A stretch of 64,000 nt of DNA from NCBI GenBank assembly GCA_934489945.1, contig CAKSSY010000003.1:21-64020 (forward strand). Direction: 5' to 3'. Numbering within the stretch: position 1 is the stretch's first letter; each line of letters opens with the position of its first letter. The notes beneath the pieces are model-generated. The model worked only from the letters and a program-made list of their open reading frames with translations. It was not told the origin of the DNA and did not search any database. Origin of the DNA: an uncultured Eubacteriales bacterium (lineage in GTDB: Bacteria > Bacillota > Clostridia > Oscillospirales > CAG-272). The position numbers and the translations under genes were made by a program. This document shows, piece by piece, positions 38,248 through 47,481 of this stretch.

Positions 38248-38277
38248 AAGAGGTGTGCTTTCGGCATACCTCTTTTT
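38248..38277 (+). terminator. Intrinsic terminator after rplS
   Basis: AAGAGGTGTGC-tttcg-GCATACCTCTT followed by TTT. Ends only 16 nt before the DUF5131 start codon. Confidence 0.7.
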
Positions 38278-38293
38278 CCGTATCGGAGGAATT

Positions 38294-39013
38294 ATGGAGT
38301 ATTCTTGGAATCCGTGGCACGGTTGTCACAAACTCAGTCCCGGCTGTAAACACTGCTATGTTTATCGGATTGATGCGGCACACGGAAGGGAACCGGGCAA
38401 GGTAACACGAAATGCCGATTTTGACCTTCCGTTGCAACGGGGAAGAAGCGGATATAAAATACCGTCCGGAAGTCTTGTGTATACCTGCTTTTCCTCGGAC
38501 TTTTTGGTAGAGGATGCCGATGGATGGCGACCGGAGGTTTGGGATTGTATGCGGCAACGACCGGATTTGGATTTTCTTTTTATTACGAAACGTATCGATC
38601 GCTTTCTTTCTTGTGTGCCGGATGATTGGGGAGACGGTTATCCGAATGTGAGTGTCGGTTGCACCTGCGAAAATCAAAGTATGGCAGAATACCGACTGCC
38701 GTTTTTTCTTGAGGCACCGATCATTCACAAATTTATCGTTTGTGAACCGCTTCTTGAGAGGATTGATTTTACCGATATTCTGCACGATCCCGGAAAAATC
38801 GAACAAATCACTGTGGGAGGCGAATCGGGTCCCGAGGCGAGAGTGTGCGATTACGATTGGGTTCTGGGGATTCGCGATTTCTGTATTTCGGCAAACGTTC
38901 CGTTTCGGTTTCGTCAGACCGGAGCAAACTTCCGGCGAGGTGGGAAAGTTTTCCGAATTCGAAGGGAATTTCAACATTCTCAGGCAAAAAGAGCGGGCAT
39001 TGATTGGCATTAA
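38294..39013 (+). CDS. Phage Gp37/Gp68-family (DUF5131) three-Cys-motif protein
   Basis: ATG 38294 follows GGAGGA. Starts MEYSWNPWHGCHKLSPGCKHCYVY. Contains VGGESGPEAR, characteristic of the family. Confidence 0.75.
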   Translation: MEYSWNPWHGCHKLSPGCKHCYVYRIDAAHGREPGKVTRNADFDLPLQRGRSGYKIPSGSLVYTCFSSDFLVEDADGWRPEVWDCMRQRPDLDFLFITKRIDRFLSCVPDDWGDGYPNVSVGCTCENQSMAEYRLPFFLEAPIIHKFIVCEPLLERIDFTDILHDPGKIEQITVGGESGPEARVCDYDWVLGIRDFCISANVPFRFRQTGANFRRGGKVFRIRREFQHSQAKRAGIDWH

Positions 39014-39087: not shown

Positions 39088-39116
39088 TAGACTTTTTCAG
39101 GAAAATCATATATAAT
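39088..39116 (+). promoter_or_regulatory. Candidate promoter of the hydrogenase operon
   Basis: TAGACT (4/6 match to the -35 consensus), 17 nt, TATAAT (39111-39116). Confidence 0.35.
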
Positions 39117-39164: not shown

Positions 39165-39207
39165 GGTATGTCAGATTAGCAAAAATCCGGCATACCGTAT
39201 ATTTTGT
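39165..39207 (+). promoter_or_regulatory. Hairpin plus U-rich tract in the hyd operon leader (weak attenuator candidate)
   Basis: GGTATGTC (39165-39172) pairs with GGCATACC (39189-39196), an 8-bp stem including one G-U pair, with a 16-nt loop, followed by GTATATTTTG. A second hairpin lies at 39131-39154. Confidence 0.3.
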
Positions 39208-39248
39208 CAGAGTTAGTTAAAGGAATATCAATCAGGAGGTTTAGTTGC

Positions 39249-39743
39249 ATGAAAAAGAAATTGACGACTGTCACATTCAAGGGAACCGAAGAACAGGAGA
39301 AGAAATTGCTTGCCGTTATCGACGAGTATAGGGGCATTGAGGGAAATCTTCTTCCTGTTCTCCAGGGGGCACAGGATATTTACGGATATCTTCCCATTGA
39401 AGTGCAGAAAATCATCGCCAGAGAGTTGGATGTGTCGCTGACCGAAATTTACGGTGTCGCATCTTTCTACTCCCAGTTTAAGCTTAACCCCAACGGAGAG
39501 GTTGCGATTGCCGTTTGCTTGGGGACCGCTTGCTATGTTAAGGGATCCGGAAAAATCGCCGATAAGGTGACGGAAATTGTCGGAGTGGCTCCCGGTGAGA
39601 CATCTTCCGATGGCAAATACAGCTTTGAAGCAACCCGTTGCATCGGCGCATGTGGTCTGGCTCCTGTTTTGACCGTCAACGGAGATGTATACGGACGTCT
39701 TTCGCCCGCAGACATCGAAGGCATTATTGAAAAATACAGATAA
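39249..39743 (+). CDS. hydC: NuoE-like [2Fe-2S] subunit of bifurcating [FeFe]-hydrogenase (HydC)
   Basis: Thioredoxin-like 2Fe-2S motif: CLGTACYVKG...CIGACGLAPV. RBS AGGAGG. Confidence 0.88.
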   Translation: MKKKLTTVTFKGTEEQEKKLLAVIDEYRGIEGNLLPVLQGAQDIYGYLPIEVQKIIARELDVSLTEIYGVASFYSQFKLNPNGEVAIAVCLGTACYVKGSGKIADKVTEIVGVAPGETSSDGKYSFEATRCIGACGLAPVLTVNGDVYGRLSPADIEGIIEKYR

Positions 39744-39753
39744 GCGGAAAAGT

Positions 39754-40116
39754 ATGAAGATTCACGAGATTTCCCGGCTTCTTGATGCCAAAATCTGCTG
39801 CTGTGAAGAAAAGGCAGACAGTGAGGTCAGTTCGGCTTGCGGAAGCGACATGATGAGCGATGTACTTGCCTTTGTAAAGGATCAGGCGGTTCTGCTCACC
39901 GGTCTTGTCAATTCGCAGGTGATTCGTACCGCGGAAATGATGGATATGCGTTGCATTGTCTTTGTTCGGAACAAACAGCCGACCGAGGAGATGCTCGCAA
40001 TTGCCCGTGACAGCGGTATTGTTGTACTGACAACCCCTATGAGAATGTACGAGGCGTGCGGAGTTCTATACTCAAGCGGTCTCAACAGTCTGAAGGTGGC
40101 TGCCCGTCATGAGTGA
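39754..40116 (+). CDS. DRTGG-domain protein (copy 1)
   Basis: 120 aa. The pattern AVLLTGLVNSQVIRTAEMMDMRCIVFVRNKQPTEEMLAIARDSGIVVLTTPMRMYEACGVL fits the DRTGG fold. Weak RBS. Confidence 0.6.
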   Translation: MKIHEISRLLDAKICCCEEKADSEVSSACGSDMMSDVLAFVKDQAVLLTGLVNSQVIRTAEMMDMRCIVFVRNKQPTEEMLAIARDSGIVVLTTPMRMYEACGVLYSSGLNSLKVAARHE

Positions 40117-40531
40117 GCCGCTTGTCTATACATTTCAGGTCGACGGTGATAATTTTACCTCGGCGGGCGAGGCTTCGGTTAAGATGAAGAAGAATCTCCG
40201 GATGCTGGCAATTTCGCCGGATATCATTCGCCGTGTTGCCATTGCCATGTATGAAGGAGAAATCAATATGGTGATTCATGCGGGCGGCGGCGTCGCTACG
40301 GTCAGTGTGTATCATGACCGTATAGAGATTGTACTTGACGATCAGGGACCCGGCATCGCCGATATTGATCTTGCTATGAAAGAGGGCTTTTCCACGGCTC
40401 CCGAGAACATCAGGAACCTTGGCTTCGGAGCGGGTATGGGACTTCCGAATATGAAACGGAACACCGATACTATGAATATTGAGTCGACACTTGGTGTGGG
40501 AACCAAGATCACCATGACGGTGAAGATCTGA
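40109..40531 (+). CDS. Small GHKL/HATPase_c protein (RsbW/SpoIIAB-size Ser/Thr-kinase-like)
   Basis: G1 box DQGPGI and G2 box GFGAGMGLP. 140 aa. Overlaps the upstream gene by 8 nt. Confidence 0.75.
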   Translation: MSEPLVYTFQVDGDNFTSAGEASVKMKKNLRMLAISPDIIRRVAIAMYEGEINMVIHAGGGVATVSVYHDRIEIVLDDQGPGIADIDLAMKEGFSTAPENIRNLGFGAGMGLPNMKRNTDTMNIESTLGVGTKITMTVKI

Positions 40532-40564: not shown

Positions 40565-41839
40565 ATGACATCCTATCAACATTCGGTATCCTTAAAGCTC
40601 GATAAATGCCGCGGTTGTACACATTGTCTGAAACATTGTCCGACCGAGGCAATACGGGTTCGTGACGGTCACGCGGTTATCAATGCCGCGCGGTGTGTGG
40701 ATTGCGGACAGTGTATTCAGTATTGTCCGCATCAGGCGAAAAAGGCGGCATCCGATAAATTGTCTGATATTTCAAAGAGCAGGTGGAAGATTGCTTTACC
40801 GGCTCCCTCGCTGTTTGGACAGTTTGACAATCTGGATGATATCGACTATGTCTTGCAGGGACTTTTGGATTGTGGTTTTGACGACGTATATGAAGTCGCA
40901 CGTGCGGCAGAACTGGTTTCCGATTATACTAGAAAATATATGAAGGAAGCAAAGCCGGAATTGCCTGTCATTTCGTCGGCGTGCCCCGTGGTCGAACGAC
41001 TTATCGGGTTGCGCTATCCGTATCTTGCCGAACACCTTCTGCCGATTTTGCCGCCTATGGAGATTGCGGCAATGGAGGCGAGAAAGGAAGCGGTGGAGAA
41101 ACATCCGGAATTGTCTGCCGATGATGTTTGCGTCGTGTTTATTTCGCCGTGTCCCGCAAAGGTCAGTTACGTTAAAAATCGTGAACCTGATAAAAAATCC
41201 AATGTGGATTTTGTCGTCTCCATCTCGGATGTGTATTTTGAACTTCTCGGCGTAATGAAAAAAGCCATTACTCCTATTCCTGTTTCCCGAACCGGCATGA
41301 TTGGTCTCGGATGGGCGAGCACGGGCGGAGAGGCAACCGCGATTTTCAATGACAAATATCTGGCAGCAGACGGCATTGATAATGTTGTTCATGTCCTGGA
41401 AGAACTTGACAACGGGTCTTTCCCGGAGTTAGAGTTTATTGAACTTAACGCTTGCGCCGGTGGTTGCGTCGGTGGCGTTATGAATGTAGTTAACCCTTTT
41501 ATTGCCAAGGCACGTTTGCGCTCATTACGCCGGTATCTTCCGGTTTCTCAGAACTGGGCGGCATTGGATGGAGCAGAAGTGCCGGGTGAGGTGATCCGTC
41601 ATGCCGATTTTCGATATGAGTCGGTCTCATCTTTTGGTCATGATCGCAAGGAATCCATGTGCATGATGAGCAGGATGGAGGAAATCTGTAAAGAACTTCC
41701 CGGAATCGATTGCGGTTCCTGCGGAGCACCGACATGTCGCGCATTTGCTACTGATATTGTCAGAGGTGAGGCTGCGATTGGTGAGTGTCCCGTTTTGTGG
41801 AGAAAAAACAGGGAAGAAACGGATCACAGCGAAAGTTGA
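40565..41839 (+). CDS. [FeFe]-hydrogenase-like protein, putative sensory type (HydS-like, no PAS domain)
   Basis: Two ferredoxin motifs (CRGCTHCLKHCP, CVDCGQCIQYCP). Degenerate H-domain motifs SSACPVV, ISPCPAKV and ELNACAGGCVGGV. C-terminal LPGIDCGSCGAPTCRAFA is an RnfB-type 4-Cys motif. Confidence 0.8.
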   Translation: MTSYQHSVSLKLDKCRGCTHCLKHCPTEAIRVRDGHAVINAARCVDCGQCIQYCPHQAKKAASDKLSDISKSRWKIALPAPSLFGQFDNLDDIDYVLQGLLDCGFDDVYEVARAAELVSDYTRKYMKEAKPELPVISSACPVVERLIGLRYPYLAEHLLPILPPMEIAAMEARKEAVEKHPELSADDVCVVFISPCPAKVSYVKNREPDKKSNVDFVVSISDVYFELLGVMKKAITPIPVSRTGMIGLGWASTGGEATAIFNDKYLAADGIDNVVHVLEELDNGSFPELEFIELNACAGGCVGGVMNVVNPFIAKARLRSLRRYLPVSQNWAALDGAEVPGEVIRHADFRYESVSSFGHDRKESMCMMSRMEEICKELPGIDCGSCGAPTCRAFATDIVRGEAAIGECPVLWRKNREETDHSES

Positions 41840-41848
41840 GGGAGCGGT

Positions 41849-42178
41849 ATGAAAGTAAGCGAACTTGCCGAAAAATTGAAATTGGATTGTCTTGCTGTGC
41901 CGATGCCGGAGCGTGAGATTACCGGAGCTTATGCAGGAGATCTCCTGAGTTGGGTGATGGGACGCGCAGAGGCAAACTGTGTTTGGGCGACAATCATGAA
42001 TAATATCAATGTTCTGGCGGTTGCGTCGTTGGCGGATGTCGCGGTTGCGGTGATTTGCGAGGGCTGCGAGGTGTCAGACGAGATTGTACAGACCGCTATG
42101 AAAAAAGGCGTAAATCTTATGCGGACGGAAATGTCTGTGTATGAATTTTGCGTCGCAGTTTCAAGGTATATTTCATGA
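41849..42178 (+). CDS. DRTGG-domain protein (copy 2)
   Basis: 109 aa. GAYAGDLLSWVMGRAEANCVWATIMNNINVLAVASLADVAVAVICEGCEVSDEIVQTAMKKGVNLMRT. RBS GAGGGAG. Confidence 0.6.
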   Translation: MKVSELAEKLKLDCLAVPMPEREITGAYAGDLLSWVMGRAEANCVWATIMNNINVLAVASLADVAVAVICEGCEVSDEIVQTAMKKGVNLMRTEMSVYEFCVAVSRYIS

Positions 42179-42906
42179 ATCGGTATTCATACGACCTTCA
42201 TGTTCACTCCTGTCTTTCCCCCTGTGCCGATAACGACATGACGCCGAATAACATAGCGGGAATGGCGGCGATTAAGGGACTTGGGATTGTGGCACTTACC
42301 GATCATAATTCAACCAAAAACTGTCGTGCATTCTTTGCTGCGGCGAAGAGGAACGGCATTGTTCCCGTTGCCGGCATGGAAATGACGACGGCGGAGGATA
42401 TACATATTGTTTGTCTCTTTCCTACGTTGGAAAGTGCCGAGGATTTTGACAGGGAATATCAACAATATCGGATTTTTTATCCGAACCGACCTGAGATTTT
42501 CGGAGATCAGCTCATTTTGGATGAAAATGACGAGGTGATAGGGCGGGAAGAAAATCTTTTGCTCAACGCCTCTACACTTTCGGTGCCGGATGCCGTTCGA
42601 TTGCTTGACCCATATGGAGCCGTTGCGTTTCCTGCTCATATTGACCGGGAGGAAAACGGAATGGTTGCGGTACTCGGTTGTATTCCGGAGAAACCGCATT
42701 TTGATTGTGTGGAATTTCGGGATAAATCCGCAATCGGCGAATATACGGAAAAATATAGATTGAAGGATAAAAGAATTCTTACCGATTCCGATGCTCATTA
42801 TCTTTGGGATATCAGTGAGGCAGAAAATTTTCTGATGTTGGAGGATGAGCCGTACAGTTCGGCACTCGTGAGAGGGTCGCTGATGCGGTTCCTTGCCGGA
42901 AAGTGA
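42175..42906 (+). CDS. PHP-family metal-dependent phosphoesterase
   Basis: Starts MNRYSYDLHVHSCLSPCADNDMTP, with TDHNS and DSDAH motifs. ATGA overlap with the upstream stop. Confidence 0.8.
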   Translation: MNRYSYDLHVHSCLSPCADNDMTPNNIAGMAAIKGLGIVALTDHNSTKNCRAFFAAAKRNGIVPVAGMEMTTAEDIHIVCLFPTLESAEDFDREYQQYRIFYPNRPEIFGDQLILDENDEVIGREENLLLNASTLSVPDAVRLLDPYGAVAFPAHIDREENGMVAVLGCIPEKPHFDCVEFRDKSAIGEYTEKYRLKDKRILTDSDAHYLWDISEAENFLMLEDEPYSSALVRGSLMRFLAGK

Positions 42907-43451
42907 AAGAAATTTCTCTTAATATTCTTGACATTGTGCAGAATTCGTTGAAAGCCGGTGCAACCCGCATCGAAATATTTATTGATGAGACCGAAACAAC
43001 ACTTACCTTTTCGGTGCATGATAACGGTTGCGGAATGAGTGAGGCGTTTCTCGCCCACGTGACCGAGCCCTTTACGACTACGCGCACAACGCGTCGTGTC
43101 GGATTGGGGCTTCCGCTTTTGAAAATGGAGGCGGAGATGACGGGCGGTACATTTTCCATTCAGTCCCGTAGCGAGAAGGAATACCCCAATCACGGAACAA
43201 GTGTTACCGCAATGTTCCGAAAGGATAATATCGACTGTATTCCGCTCGGTGATATTGTCGGAACGGTTTGCGTTCTTGTGAGCGGCATCGGAGAGGAAAA
43301 TATTTTGTTTGAACATCGTATGCCGAATGGGAAGGTAAGGCTTTCCACCGCAGAAATGCGGGAAGTCCTGGGCGATATTCCGCTTGCTTCTCCGGAGGTT
43401 GTAAATTGGGTAAGAGAGTATCTGAAAGAGGCATATCAAATTTGTAGTTAA
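42903..43451 (+). CDS. GHKL/HATPase_c protein (second, 182 aa)
   Basis: N-box NILDIVQNSLKAGA, G1 DNGCGM, G2 GLGLPLL. GTG start with GTGA overlap. Confidence 0.75.
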   Translation: MKEISLNILDIVQNSLKAGATRIEIFIDETETTLTFSVHDNGCGMSEAFLAHVTEPFTTTRTTRRVGLGLPLLKMEAEMTGGTFSIQSRSEKEYPNHGTSVTAMFRKDNIDCIPLGDIVGTVCVLVSGIGEENILFEHRMPNGKVRLSTAEMREVLGDIPLASPEVVNWVREYLKEAYQICS

Positions 43452-43480: not shown

Positions 43481-43852
43481 ATGAAAACACTGGAAGAACT
43501 TTCCGCGATCCGTGATCGCATGAAAAGCAAGGTCGCTTTGCGCGAGGAAAGCAATGAAATCAGAATTGTTGTGGGTATGGCAACCTGCGGAATTGCTGCA
43601 GGAGCAAGACCGGTTCTGAATACTTTTGTCGAGGAAGTCGACAAGGCAGGTCTTGTTGGTACGGTTTCCGTGACACAGACGGGTTGTATCGGTATGTGCC
43701 GCTTTGAGCCGATTGTTGAAGTTATGAAAGCCGGAGAAGAGAAGGTTACATACGTCAAAATGACTCCCGATAAGGCAAAGGAAGTTATGGAAAAGCATAT
43801 CAAGGGCGGCAAACCCGTCGTTGAATATACAATAGGCAACGCCAAAATATAA
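43481..43852 (+). CDS. Thioredoxin-like [2Fe-2S] ferredoxin (HydD-like small subunit)
   Basis: GMATCGIAAGA...TGCIGMCRFEPIV. 123 aa. Lies immediately upstream of hydB. Confidence 0.8.
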   Translation: MKTLEELSAIRDRMKSKVALREESNEIRIVVGMATCGIAAGARPVLNTFVEEVDKAGLVGTVSVTQTGCIGMCRFEPIVEVMKAGEEKVTYVKMTPDKAKEVMEKHIKGGKPVVEYTIGNAKI

Positions 43853-43865
43853 GGAGGAAAAAAAC

Positions 43866-45659
43866 ATGGTACGTTCACATGTACTTATTTGCGGCGGTAC
43901 CGGTTGTACATCGTCGGGTAGTGTAAAGATCCGCGAAAAAATGACAGCCGAACTGGAAGCCGCAGGTCTTTCTGATGAGATCAAGGTTGTCCAGACCGGT
44001 TGCTTTGGTCTTTGTGCAAACGGTCCCATTATGATCGTATATCCGGAGGGTACCTTTTATTCCAAGGTGTCGGAGGATGATGTTCACGAAATCGTGACCG
44101 AGCATCTTCTTAAGGGAAGAGTTGTCAGCCGTCTGGTTCATAAGGATGCCGGCGAGGATGGCGGGCTTCGTGAAATGGCTCTTTCCGAGACTACTTTCTA
44201 TAAGAGACAAAAGAGAGTCGCGCTTCGAAACTGCGGCGTTATCAACCCCGAAAATATCGACGAGTACATCGGAACCGACGGTTATCAGGCACTCGGTAAG
44301 GTTCTGACCGAAATGACACCTCAGGAAGTGATTGATACCATCAAGGCATCCGGACTTCGCGGAAGAGGCGGAGCCGGATTCCCGACAGGAAACAAGTGGC
44401 AGTTTGCCGCAAACCAGCCGAAGGGAAAGAAATATGTTTGCTGCAACGCTGACGAGGGCGACCCCGGCGCGTTCATGGACAGATCGGTTCTTGAGGGCGA
44501 TCCGCATGCCGTTCTTGAGGCTATGGCAATTGCCGGTTATGCGATTGGCTCGGATGAAGGTTATATTTATGTCCGCGCCGAATACCCCATTGCCGTTCAT
44601 CGCCTTGAAGTTGCTATTCGCGAGGCTCACGAATACGGTCTGCTTGGCAACAATATTTTCGGAACCGACTTTTCCTTTGACATTCACCTTCGCCTTGGTG
44701 CAGGTGCATTCGTCTGCGGAGAGGAAACGGCACTTATGACCTCTATTGAAGGTAAACGCGGTGAACCGCGTCCCCGTCCTCCGTTCCCGGCAATCAAGGG
44801 TCTTTTCGGTAAACCTTCCATTTTGAATAACGTTGAAACATATGCCAATATTCCGCAGATTATCCTTAAGGGAGCAGACTGGTTTGCGTCTATGGGTACC
44901 GAGAAGTCCAAGGGTACAAAAGTATTCGCGTTGGGCGGAAAAATTACCAATACCGGACTTGTTGAAGTTCCTATGGGAACGACGCTTCGGGAAATCATTG
45001 AGGATATCGGCGGTGGTATCCCGAACGGCAAGAAGTTTAAGGCGGCTCAGACCGGCGGACCTTCCGGCGGTTGTATTCCCGCGTCTCTTATCGATACGCC
45101 GATCGATTATGACAACCTGCTTGCTATCGGTTCCATGATGGGGTCCGGCGGACTTATTGTCATGGATGAGGATACCTGTATGGTGGATATTGCCAAGTTC
45201 TTCCTGGAGTTTACCGTGGATGAATCCTGTGGAAAGTGTACCCCTTGTCGTATCGGTACAGTTCGCCTTTTGGAAATCCTCAATAAGATTACAAGCGGAA
45301 ACGGTGAGATGGAAGACCTTGACCGTCTTGAGGAACTTTGCAATTACATTAAGGCGGGTTCTCTTTGCGGACTTGGTCAGACGGCACCCAACCCTGTTCT
45401 TTCTACACTTCGTTATTTCCGTGATGAGTATATTGCTCATATCGTAGATAAGAAGTGTCCTGCTCATGTGTGCAAGAATCTGATGCAATTCAAGATTGAT
45501 GCTGATAAATGCCGCGGATGTACAGCTTGTGCAAGAAAATGCCCTGTTGATGCGATTGAAGGTGCGGTCAAGACTCCGCATACCATTGATTCTGCAAAGT
45601 GTATCAGATGCGGTGCTTGTATCGCAACGTGCAAGTTCGGCGCAATTTACAAGGATTGA
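43866..45659 (+). CDS. hydB: NuoF-like NAD(P)H/FMN-binding subunit of bifurcating [FeFe]-hydrogenase (HydB)
   Basis: N-terminal 2Fe-2S (CGGTGCTSS...TGCFGLCANGP). FMN/NADH part GLRGRGGAGFPTGNKW. SLBB part CGKCTPCR. C-terminal CRGCTACARKCP and CIRCGACIATC. Confidence 0.92.
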   Translation: MVRSHVLICGGTGCTSSGSVKIREKMTAELEAAGLSDEIKVVQTGCFGLCANGPIMIVYPEGTFYSKVSEDDVHEIVTEHLLKGRVVSRLVHKDAGEDGGLREMALSETTFYKRQKRVALRNCGVINPENIDEYIGTDGYQALGKVLTEMTPQEVIDTIKASGLRGRGGAGFPTGNKWQFAANQPKGKKYVCCNADEGDPGAFMDRSVLEGDPHAVLEAMAIAGYAIGSDEGYIYVRAEYPIAVHRLEVAIREAHEYGLLGNNIFGTDFSFDIHLRLGAGAFVCGEETALMTSIEGKRGEPRPRPPFPAIKGLFGKPSILNNVETYANIPQIILKGADWFASMGTEKSKGTKVFALGGKITNTGLVEVPMGTTLREIIEDIGGGIPNGKKFKAAQTGGPSGGCIPASLIDTPIDYDNLLAIGSMMGSGGLIVMDEDTCMVDIAKFFLEFTVDESCGKCTPCRIGTVRLLEILNKITSGNGEMEDLDRLEELCNYIKAGSLCGLGQTAPNPVLSTLRYFRDEYIAHIVDKKCPAHVCKNLMQFKIDADKCRGCTACARKCPVDAIEGAVKTPHTIDSAKCIRCGACIATCKFGAIYKD

Positions 45660-45675
45660 GAAAGGAGAACCACCC

Positions 45676-47436
45676 ATGGAAATGTTAAATATAAAGATCA
45701 ATGGTGCGGACTATCAGATTCCCGCCGGTTCCACCGTGTTGGAAGCCGCACGTGTCGCTCATGTTGATATCCCCACCCTCTGCTATCTGAAGGATATCAA
45801 TGAAATCGGTGCTTGCCGTCTCTGCCTTGTTGAGGTCGCTGAAATGCGCGGTCCTCAACTCGGACCTTACAGAATGGTAACTGCCTGCGTATACCCTGTT
45901 ACGGAGGGCATGAATATCATCACCAACTCCGAAAAGATCCGCAATTCGAGAAAACTCAATCTTGAACTGGTTCTTTCCAATCATAATAAGAAGTGTCTTT
46001 CCTGTATTCGCAGCACCACGTGCGAGCTTCAGAAGCTCTGCAACGAATACGGAGTAGAGGAGACTCACTTCAGTGGCAAGACAACTCCTACCGAAATTGA
46101 CGATTCGTCGGTTTCCATTATTCGTGATAACAGTAAGTGTATTCTTTGCCGTCGGTGTGTTGCCGCTTGTAAGAATATGCAGGGAATCGGCGTGATCGGT
46201 TCCATTAATCGTGGCTTTGATACCGTTATCGGCACCGGATTTGAAAAGGAACTCGCTTCTACGTCTTGCGTCAACTGCGGTCAGTGTATCGTCGCTTGTC
46301 CGACCGGCGCACTCTATGAGAGAGACGATACCGCCAAGGTGTTTGCCGCTCTGAATGATCCGAAAAAACATGTTGTGATTTGCACGGCTCCTTCTGTCCG
46401 CGCAACACTCGGAGAATGCTTCGGCTATGCTCCCGGAACCGATGTGGAAGGTAAGATGGTTACCGCTCTCAAGAAACTCGGTTTTGACGGTGTGTTCGAT
46501 ATGAATACAACCGCTGACCTTACCATTATGGAAGAGGCATATGAAGTTCTTGATAGATTGAATCATGGCGGAAAACTTCCGCTTATTACATCCTGCTCGC
46601 CCGGATGGGTTAAGTACTGTGAGCATTATTTCCCGGAGTTTACCGAAAATCTTTCCACTTGTAAATCTCCTCAACAGATGTTCGGTGCTATCGTCAAGAC
46701 ATACTATGCACAGAAGAAGGGCATTGATCCTAAAGATATCTTTATGGTTTCTGCCATTCCCTGTACAGCCAAGAAATTTGAAGTCGGTCGCGACGGCGAG
46801 TCTGCGGCAGGCGTTCCTGATGTCGATGTTGCTATCACGACTCGTGAAGTCGGCAGAATGATTCAGACTGCCGGTATCCAGTTTACAGAGCTTGAAGACA
46901 GTATGTATGATGATGCGTTCGGAATCGGAACCGGTGCCGGTGCCATCTTTGGCGCAACGGGCGGTGTTATGGAGGCGGCACTTCGTACTGCGGCGGAGGT
47001 TATCCTCGGTAAGCCTTTGGAAAAGGTGGAGTTTACCGATGTTCGTGGTCCTGAAAAGGTTCGTTATGCTACGTATAAACTCGGCGATGTCGAGTTGAAG
47101 GTGGCGGTAACATCCGGAACCAAGAATGCAAAGGAACTTCTCAGAAAAATTGAAGCCGGTGAAGTCAATGTTCAGTTCGTGGAGATTATGGCTTGTCCCG
47201 GTGGATGTGTTAACGGCGGCGGTCAGCCTTATCAGCCCGCAACGGTTCGGAACAATACCGATCTGGCTTCCAAGAGGGCAACTGTGCTGTACAATGCTGA
47301 TGCCAACAAGCTCGCACTTCGCAAATCTCATGAGAATCCGGTTGTTCAGACTCTTTATAAGGAATTTTTGGGTGAGCCGAACAGCCACAAGGCACATGAG
47401 ATCCTTCACACGCACTATGTAAAACGCGGACTTTAA
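45676..47436 (+). CDS. hydA: [FeFe]-hydrogenase catalytic subunit (HydA, M3-type N-terminal cluster domains)
   Basis: ATG 45676 follows AAAGGAGAA. 2Fe-2S part CYLKDINEIGACRLC. HNKKCLSCIRSTTC. Two 4Fe-4S motifs. H-cluster motifs TSCSPGW, IPCTAKKFE and EIMACPGGCVNGGGQP. Confidence 0.93.
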   Translation: MEMLNIKINGADYQIPAGSTVLEAARVAHVDIPTLCYLKDINEIGACRLCLVEVAEMRGPQLGPYRMVTACVYPVTEGMNIITNSEKIRNSRKLNLELVLSNHNKKCLSCIRSTTCELQKLCNEYGVEETHFSGKTTPTEIDDSSVSIIRDNSKCILCRRCVAACKNMQGIGVIGSINRGFDTVIGTGFEKELASTSCVNCGQCIVACPTGALYERDDTAKVFAALNDPKKHVVICTAPSVRATLGECFGYAPGTDVEGKMVTALKKLGFDGVFDMNTTADLTIMEEAYEVLDRLNHGGKLPLITSCSPGWVKYCEHYFPEFTENLSTCKSPQQMFGAIVKTYYAQKKGIDPKDIFMVSAIPCTAKKFEVGRDGESAAGVPDVDVAITTREVGRMIQTAGIQFTELEDSMYDDAFGIGTGAGAIFGATGGVMEAALRTAAEVILGKPLEKVEFTDVRGPEKVRYATYKLGDVELKVAVTSGTKNAKELLRKIEAGEVNVQFVEIMACPGGCVNGGGQPYQPATVRNNTDLASKRATVLYNADANKLALRKSHENPVVQTLYKEFLGEPNSHKAHEILHTHYVKRGL

Positions 47437-47444
47437 GGTCGTTT

Positions 47445-47481
47445 AAACGGGTGTATTCTTTGAAATACACCCGTTTTTTTT
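47445..47481 (+). terminator. Intrinsic terminator after hydA
   Basis: AAACGGGTGTATT-ctttga-AATACACCCGTTT followed by TTTTTTTG. Confidence 0.85.

Follow-up and report, generated by a model that had tools for sequence, protein, structure and literature searches.

How might a hydrogenase that has the features of an H2 sensor and no output domain of its own pass on what it senses? The question, stated as an open one in the papers on the sensor-like hydrogenase TamHydS, is raised by a locus in a 64,000-nucleotide stretch of DNA (the window: positions 21 to 64,020 of contig CAKSSY010000003.1, assembly GCA_934489945.1) from an uncultured Eubacteriales bacterium of the order Oscillospirales. Here, an open reading frame at 40565-41839 (+) codes for a hydrogenase-like protein of 424 amino acids, hereafter HydS, and lies amid the genes of a bifurcating-type hydrogenase, HydABC. 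Based on its domains and sequence motifs, we assign HydS with high confidence to group D (also termed M2e) of the [FeFe]-hydrogenases, the class of putative H2 sensors without a PAS domain that is typified by TamHydS. The kind is already known, and HydS adds one more member to a very large, named and biochemically studied class. We further posit that HydS is probably the H2 sensor of a five-protein module that signals by contact, which is in our view the best overall explanation of the locus. Both this partner module and the gap in cofactor maturases described below should be seen as leads open to testing, not as settled results.

A probable group D hydrogenase with a C-terminal cluster

The reading frame is open throughout and begins with an ATG behind a purine-rich ribosome site of the GGAAGA type. 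At least 8000 database proteins match HydS with the same architecture at E<=1e-10 and 392 clusters (50% identity) match it at E<=1e-30; hence, we take the gene to be real and not a chance reading frame. Its product opens with an F-domain holding two ferredoxin motifs of the form CxxCxxCxxxCP, namely CRGCTHCLKHCP (C15, C18, C21 and C25) and CVDCGQCIQYCP (C44, C47, C50 and C54), each within a Fer4 match. In the hydrogenase (H-) domain that follows, the motif ISSACPVV supplies A139, at the position of C299 of the enzyme CpI, and C140; ISPCPAKV supplies S194, at the position of M353, together with C196 and K199; and ELNACAGGCVGG supplies E293, C297 and C301, with N295 at the position of M497. The four cysteines C140, C196, C297 and C301 are the H-cluster ligands and are near-invariant in a family alignment of 107 full-length cluster representatives. 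K199 is the counterpart of the conserved lysine of the MPCxxK motif, which we take to contact a CN ligand of the diiron site.

The C-terminal stretch IDCGSCGAPTC...GECP has exactly the spacing Cx2Cx4Cx16C (C383, C386, C391 and C408). Among solved structures it matches residues 42-77 of RnfB (9eri_B, E 9.5e-10) and residues 7-54 of the large subunit of the corrinoid Fe-S protein (4djd_C, E 6.9e-7). A Pfam scan of the whole 424-residue protein found no PAS or other output domain, nor is there room for one, since only 16 residues follow the last cysteine. The clusters taken together form a complete electron relay. An AlphaFold2 model, computed from an alignment of 59 relatives, reached a predicted local distance difference test score (pLDDT) of 94.2 and a predicted template modelling score (pTM) of 0.92, and its best structural matches are the [FeFe]-hydrogenases of Desulfovibrio, C. 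beijerinckii and C. pasteurianum (template modelling score, TM, ~0.7). An earlier note, made from the letters of the window alone, had described two N-terminal ferredoxin motifs, H-domain motifs degenerate by swaps to Ala, Ser and Asn, retention of the four cluster-ligating cysteines, a C-terminal motif of the RnfB and corrinoid protein type, and the lack of a PAS or other output domain. The cysteine positions and Fer4 matches, the residues A139, S194 and N295, the four ligands in place, the PF04060 and structural matches, and the Pfam scan bear out these statements in turn.

The published definition of M2e comprises two N-terminal clusters, an H-domain without the C299 relay, replacement of M353 by Ser or Thr, a variable M497, a C-terminal Cx2Cx4Cx16C, the lack of PAS, and a gene beside that of a group A hydrogenase (PMC8163306). 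The first member to be characterised was TamHydS of Thermoanaerobacter mathranii (PMC8163306), under study since 2019. In such slow, putatively H2-sensing enzymes, the relay cysteine and the framing methionines are replaced while the cluster ligands are kept (PMC8163306), and the earlier note's view of the HydS motifs as typical of slow H2-sensing enzymes thus coincides with a published signature. The same holds across the 107 representatives: Ala, Ser, Phe and Thr prevail at position 139, where Cys is not a common residue; 90 of the 107 have Ser or Thr at position 194; and position 295 varies.

Residues of the proton path point to the same class, and charged residues around the accessory clusters do so in part. 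An alternative proton path said to be exclusive to group D runs through E252, E289, S249 and D265 in TamHydS numbering (PMC10407848), for which HydS has E256, E293, T253 and D269, all conserved in its family; the amine bridgehead adjoins the glutamate equivalent to E256 (PMC10407848). Charged residues conserved in 70 group D enzymes are R30, R32, E392, D393, D378 and D403 (PMC13104023). In HydS, R31, R33, D382 and D397 are present and E407 is a conservative change. Two points tell against the assignment: these equivalences derive from conserved motif context and a constant +4 offset and not from a direct alignment of HydS with TamHydS, and T396 of HydS stands where group D has a conserved glutamate (Glu in 86 of the 107 representatives). 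The published list of group D enzymes includes the Oscillospirales [Clostridium] leptum and Pseudoflavonifractor capillosus; among the cluster members of ten family representatives, none was named from that list of 70.

Overall, the window protein resembles TamHydS (PMC8163306, PMC10407848, PMC13104023), as judged from published features and not from a direct sequence alignment, in its domain order and approximate length, its four H-cluster cysteines, the loss of C299 and the change of M353 to Ser, the Glu-Glu-Ser/Thr-Asp proton path, the Cx2Cx4Cx16C cluster, the lack of PAS, the arginine pair of the N-domain, and the aspartate beside the first C-terminal cysteine. The genes are likewise similarly placed, upstream of a bifurcating-type HydABC and beside a histidine-kinase-like ATPase, in an operon ending in a prototypical HydA, and the AlphaFold2 model confidence is 94.2 in both cases. 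The window protein differs from TamHydS in having Asn rather than Leu at the M497 position, where Asn is conserved within the order, as well as Thr for Glu at the place of E392 and Glu for Asp before the last cysteine. Its operon has no adjoining AraC-type regulator, and its host is a mesophilic gut Clostridia bacterium in whose genome HydEFG were not found.

The genome contains three genes with a hydrogenase domain, coding for HydA, the group D HydS and a group C protein with PAS. HydS is 30% identical to this PAS-bearing paralogue and 22% to its own HydA; these values fit the published placement of group D nearest to group C. Members of group C (M2f), such as TmHydS of Thermotoga maritima and HfsB of Thermoanaerobacterium, share with HydS two N-terminal clusters, an H-domain with an altered second sphere, the same C-terminal four-cysteine cluster, and a proposed role in H2 sensing. 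They differ by a C-terminal PAS and by Gly and Ser at the places of M353 and M497, none of which HydS has. The group C paralogue of this genome (556 amino acids, L082:703-2373, minus strand, contig C103) carries two Fer4 domains, Cx2Cx4Cx16C and PAS, with the H-domain motifs ISSCCPSV, GPCVAKK and EMSACSGSC, and in relatives a gene for a hydrogenase of ~480 amino acids lies ~3 kb from the group C gene in an hfs-like layout. With group A (CpI, DdH, HydA1 of A. woodii and the HydA of the same operon), HydS has in common the H-domain fold (TM ~0.7), the four cluster cysteines and an F-domain that carries two [4Fe-4S] clusters. At ~20% identity, however, it lacks their proton-relay cysteine, both methionines and the small-subunit region, and has the extra C-terminal cluster domain. 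That domain shares its Cx2Cx4Cx16C with the PF04060 region of RnfB and the corrinoid Fe-S protein (E 1e-9 to 1e-6), but is C-terminal to a hydrogenase domain in HydS, while the cluster is N-terminal in those proteins.

A conserved module of likely partners and its possible output

Ten co-directional, tightly spaced genes, of which hydS is the fourth, lie between a promoter-like site and a strong terminator-like hairpin (Table 1). By its predicted products, the operon is that of an electron-bifurcating-type HydABC(D) hydrogenase with HydS inside it. The immediate neighbours of hydS code for two DRTGG-domain proteins, a small GHKL ATPase of the SpoIIAB/RsbW type and a PHP-domain phosphoesterase. 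We compared this arrangement with 80 named loci from other species of the order, whose HydS proteins are 54-78% identical to that of the window and all of which come from gut or rumen bins of the Oscillospirales type (labelled, e.g., Acutalibacteraceae, Oscillospiraceae, Ruminococcaceae or Clostridia). The order DRTGG, ATPase, HydS, DRTGG, PHP, ATPase, ferredoxin, HydB, HydA is kept in nearly all of them as far as the contigs reach, with the upstream DRTGG gene preceding that of the ATPase in 73 of the 80.

The arrangement extends well beyond the order. An even sampling of the phylum comprised 121 genomes, 42 of them with a HydS relative at E<=1e-40, and 29 loci from this level (36-48% identity) were searched with profiles built from the order-level loci. 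The small ATPase directly upstream of HydS and a DRTGG protein directly downstream were found at every one of the 29 loci, the PHP gene at 28 and the upstream DRTGG gene at 26. In the order-level loci, hydC is the only gene whose place differs. It either opens the operon, as it does in the window, or follows the PHP gene and precedes that for the second ATPase (L019, L062, L069, L074, L075, L078 and most of L195-L223). From this variable position of hydC, we conclude that the five genes of the sensor block shift together with respect to the structural genes. At the phylum level, one group D homologue (L198, G199:C47:41714-42952) is interrupted by a single in-frame TAG, which could reflect a pseudogene, a sequencing error or recoding.

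Moreover, HydS is naturally fused to two kinds of these neighbours. We observed DRTGG-HydS fusions (P0138 and P0209), ATPase-HydS fusions with the ATPase at the N-terminus (P0166 and P0298-P0302), and HydS-DRTGG fusions with the DRTGG domain at the C-terminus (P0140, P0144, P0254, P0226 and P0265). Most of them occur on several independent contigs, including one record from a cultured isolate; no fused form longer than 743 amino acids was found, a negative of little weight. Conserved adjacency and gene fusion together typically indicate that proteins are physical partners. They also lend support to the proposal of the earlier note that the signal passes to the neighbouring gene products by protein contact. 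Our literature search found no paper linking DRTGG domains with hydrogenases. The constant gene order DRTGG, ATPase, HydS, DRTGG, PHP and the fusions found in nature single out four proteins as candidate partners for a sensor without PAS.

How such a module might work can be outlined from the biochemistry of the class. After artificial maturation, TamHydS carries an H-cluster. Its H2 turnover is slow (PMC8163306), it stabilises reduced states, and its secondary structure changes on exposure to H2. Tolerance of CO and a stabilised Hred state are further traits expected of the class. We posit that H2 would react slowly at the H-cluster of HydS, stabilising a reduced state that alters the conformation of the protein. 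The SpoIIAB-like ATPase and HydS-bound DRTGG proteins would read out this conformation within a module of five proteins, i.e. DRTGG, SpoIIAB-like ATPase/kinase, HydS, DRTGG and PHP phosphoesterase. The module would most likely work as an ATP-dependent phospho- or partner-switch, in which the ATPase acts together with the PHP phosphoesterase. The notion that module proteins read the H2 state of HydS by contact is one that we hold to be at least as probable as its negation, and slightly favoured. The output of the module is more likely to be exerted on the HydABC enzyme itself, or on some distal regulator, than directly on transcription, because neither the operon nor its flanks encode a DNA-binding protein and the module lies between hydC and hydB/hydA. 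If true, control of the bifurcating hydrogenase by such a switch would answer how sensors without PAS signal.

Two known systems serve as working analogies. The SpoIIAB/RsbW partner-switching systems likewise combine a small GHKL ATPase of the serine-kinase type with small partners and a phosphatase. In the window, by contrast, the partners are DRTGG and not STAS proteins (the Pfam scan found no STAS gene in the operon), the phosphoesterase is of the PHP and not the PP2C type, and there is no sigma factor or response regulator in the operon. Against the model TIGR01925 (spIIAB), the small ATPase scores E 7.6e-14 and 51.8 bits, under the cut-off of 135 bits, and we suggest that it may resemble SpoIIAB in mode of action only. 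Its N-box, G1 and G2 motifs are intact, as are the ATP-binding motifs of the second GHKL ATPase; in the PHP protein, the metal-binding motifs, HxH among them, are intact too. The regulatory [NiFe]-hydrogenase HoxBC with HoxJ offers the other parallel, that of a slow hydrogenase passing its state to a kinase by contact.

The same operon could also be read in terms of catalysis, with HydS as a slow yet truly catalytic hydrogenase, either an additional subunit for H2 handling or an isoenzyme, that swaps electrons with HydABC through its three accessory clusters, and with the neighbours as assembly or accessory factors. TamHydS does interconvert protons and H2 reversibly, even if slowly (PMC8163306), the cluster relay of HydS is complete, and hydS shares one operon with hydC, hydB and hydA at tight spacing, with no strong internal terminator. 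We nevertheless regard this reading as improbable. The loss of the canonical proton relay and the low rates are conserved across the family, and the pair of GHKL proteins that bind ATP, like the phosphoesterase, belong to signalling rather than to redox chemistry. To our knowledge, the purified HydABC(D) enzymes of Thermotoga, Acetobacterium and Thermoanaerobacter contain no such subunit.

The maturases HydE, HydF and HydG

Several considerations weigh against HydS as an H2 sensor. The H2-sensing role of group D is still called putative in the literature, TamHydS does turn over H2 slowly, and its C-terminal cluster stays oxidised, with no redox change under H2 (PMC13104023). The kinase, phosphatase and partner-switch roles that we propose for the neighbours are predicted from their domain families only. 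Furthermore, in the genome to which the window belongs (G000; 2.0 Mb, 96% complete), curated models gave no match for HydE and HydG and returned only generic GTPases for HydF. A tblastn search of the whole assembly with the HydE, HydG and HydF of a relative agrees, finding none. As none of the three maturases was found, it is questionable whether HydS receives its [2Fe] subcluster in this organism. The assembly is a 164-contig draft, which leaves the absence unproven.

The pattern recurs in relatives. HydG was not found in the 13 other genomes of the genus, all of which have hydrogenase-domain genes. Restricting the order to genomes with a completeness of 95% or more leaves 101, of which 93 encode a prototypical HydA and 45 encode HydG, and HydA occurs without HydG in 53 of the 93. 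The distribution of HydG follows lineage: it occurs in 0 of 5, 0 of 5 and 0 of 3 genomes of some families and in 5 of 6 and 3 of 3 of others. In the phylum sample, HydG was not found in 16 of the 42 genomes bearing group D. Five near-closed genomes (3-10 contigs) yielded no HydG with either the family model or a protein query; searches for HydE in genomes G022 and G203, and for HydF in G022, likewise found nothing. Most of the HydG-negative genomes are metagenome bins, and every closed single-contig genome in our samples has HydG. Where relatives encode the maturases, the genes lie on long chromosomal contigs, as in the hydE-hydG-hydF operon of G015. Of the genes flanking that operon, only one is shared with the genome of the window. 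Its place there is in the middle of contig C66, without an adjoining maturase gene, and apart from it the synteny is lost.

These observations bring up a reading in which HydS has no [2Fe] subcluster at all and, as a [4Fe-4S]-only protein akin to Nar1, senses or relays the redox state of ferredoxin or NADH, or O2, to the module. The missing maturases of this genome, of its genus and of many genomes of the order and phylum, near-closed ones included, speak in its favour. Yet K199, E256, D269 and E293 are identical in HydS proteins from genomes with and without HydG at an overall identity of 48-79%, which argues that the H-cluster residues are still under selection, and the co-encoded HydA is equally well conserved. 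The prevalence of metagenome bins among the HydG-less genomes further lowers its standing, as does the finding that a lack of HydEFG does not keep archaea and protists from making active [FeFe]-hydrogenases, for which an alternative maturation route has been proposed (PMC11216029). On balance, we consider a HydS lacking the [2Fe] subcluster unlikely.

Could the HydA of the operon, for its part, dispense with maturases? The motif TSCSPGW, with Ser at the second Cys of TSCCPGW, had raised the idea of an inactive or Stn-type transhydrogenase that needs none. We rejected this candidate because the experimentally active HydA1 of A. woodii (PDB 7q4v) has the same motif, because the motif is common with or without HydG (in HydG-positive genomes, 25 of 40 HydA copies have it; in HydG-negative ones, 35 of 40), and because the operon HydA scores above the cut-off of NF040763 and has kept its small-subunit domain as well as motifs 2 and 3. 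TSCSPGW is a clade trait common to most HydA of the order and no defect. The three motifs of the window HydA are TSCSPGW, IPCTAKKFE and EIMACPGGCVNGGGQP; within hydA, TSCSPGW lies at 46588-46608 and IPCTAKK, with Ile for the classical Met, at 46756-46776.

Returning to HydS as an H2 sensor, a wider proposal would combine two parts: (a) HydS is the sensor head of a five-protein ATP-dependent switch that controls the bifurcating hydrogenase post-translationally, and (b) these bacteria have an H-cluster route independent of HydEFG, or take up the cofactor. The second part would follow from the retention of HydS, the group C sensor and HydABC under purifying selection without HydE/F/G in the genus and in many gut Clostridia. 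We offer the two parts jointly as a speculative combination, which we judge doubtful. Proposals of an alternative H-cluster route have so far been limited to archaea and some protists, and a literature search, itself incomplete, found no report of bacteria with a prototypical HydA and without HydEFG. If the gap held true in closed genomes and cultures, it would extend the problem of alternative H-cluster maturation to common gut bacteria and would affect the prediction of H2 production from gut metagenomes.

The operon and its surroundings

Table 1. Features of the hydrogenase operon in the window, with the domains of HydS
Feature	Position	Strand	Basis
Promoter-like site TAGACT-17-TATAAT, in the AT-rich gap before the operon	39088..39116	+	consensus scan only
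hydC, NuoE-like thioredoxin-type [2Fe-2S] subunit	39204..39743	+	PF01257 E 2.9e-47
DRTGG-domain protein 1	39685..40116	+	PF07085 E 1.6e-5
Small GHKL ATPase, 140 amino acids, SpoIIAB/RsbW (serine-kinase, anti-sigma) type	40109..40531	+	PF02518, PF13581
Group D (M2e) putative sensory [FeFe]-hydrogenase (HydS, P0001), 424 amino acids	40565..41839	+	Pfam, motifs, AlphaFold2 model
HydS N-terminal F-domain, two [4Fe-4S] motifs, residues 9-58	40589..40738	+	2x Fer4 (Pfam), cysteine positions
HydS H-domain, residues 77-304	40793..41476	+	Fe_hyd_lg_C PF02906, E 1.4e-27
HydS C-terminal cluster domain, residues 378-410, RnfB/corrinoid Fe-S protein type	41696..41794	+	PF04060 'Putative Fe-S cluster', E 8.4e-15
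DRTGG-domain protein 2	41849..42178	+	PF02603 E 3.2e-5, PF07085 E 1.4e-3
PHP-domain phosphoesterase	42148..42906	+	PF02811 E 4.6e-10
Second GHKL ATPase, consisting of a histidine-kinase-type catalytic domain with neither a DHp nor a sensor part	42903..43451	+	PF02518 E 6.9e-16
Small thioredoxin-like [2Fe-2S] ferredoxin, HydD-like	43481..43852	+	PF01257 E 3.1e-5; NF041612 E 1.3e-12, below cut-off
hydB, NuoF-like FMN/NADH subunit, C-terminal ferredoxin domain	43866..45659	+	PF01512 E 1.2e-45, PF10589 E 9.9e-36
hydA, prototypical group A NADH-linked [FeFe]-hydrogenase	45676..47436	+	NF040763 852.9 bits (cut-off 765); PF02906 E 1.1e-92; PF02256
Terminator-like hairpin, 13-bp stem then T run, 9 nt past the hydA stop	47445..47476	+	

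Several of the reading frames in Table 1 probably begin further downstream than listed. The likely true start of hydC is the ATG at 39249, which follows AGGAGG; that of DRTGG protein 1 is the ATG at 39754 (MKIHEIS), just past the hydC stop; and that of the PHP protein is the ATG at 42175, which overlaps the stop of DRTGG protein 2. The reading frame for DRTGG protein 2 in turn begins 9 nt past the stop of hydS. No Rex-type operator was obvious in the promoter gap by eye, where no formal search was made.

Just upstream of the operon, at 38255-39013 (+), lies a gene for a DUF5131 protein (PF07505, E 1.6e-43); a reading frame of the same size on the opposite strand has no family match and is probably spurious. 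Downstream, the operon is followed by pyrH and frr.

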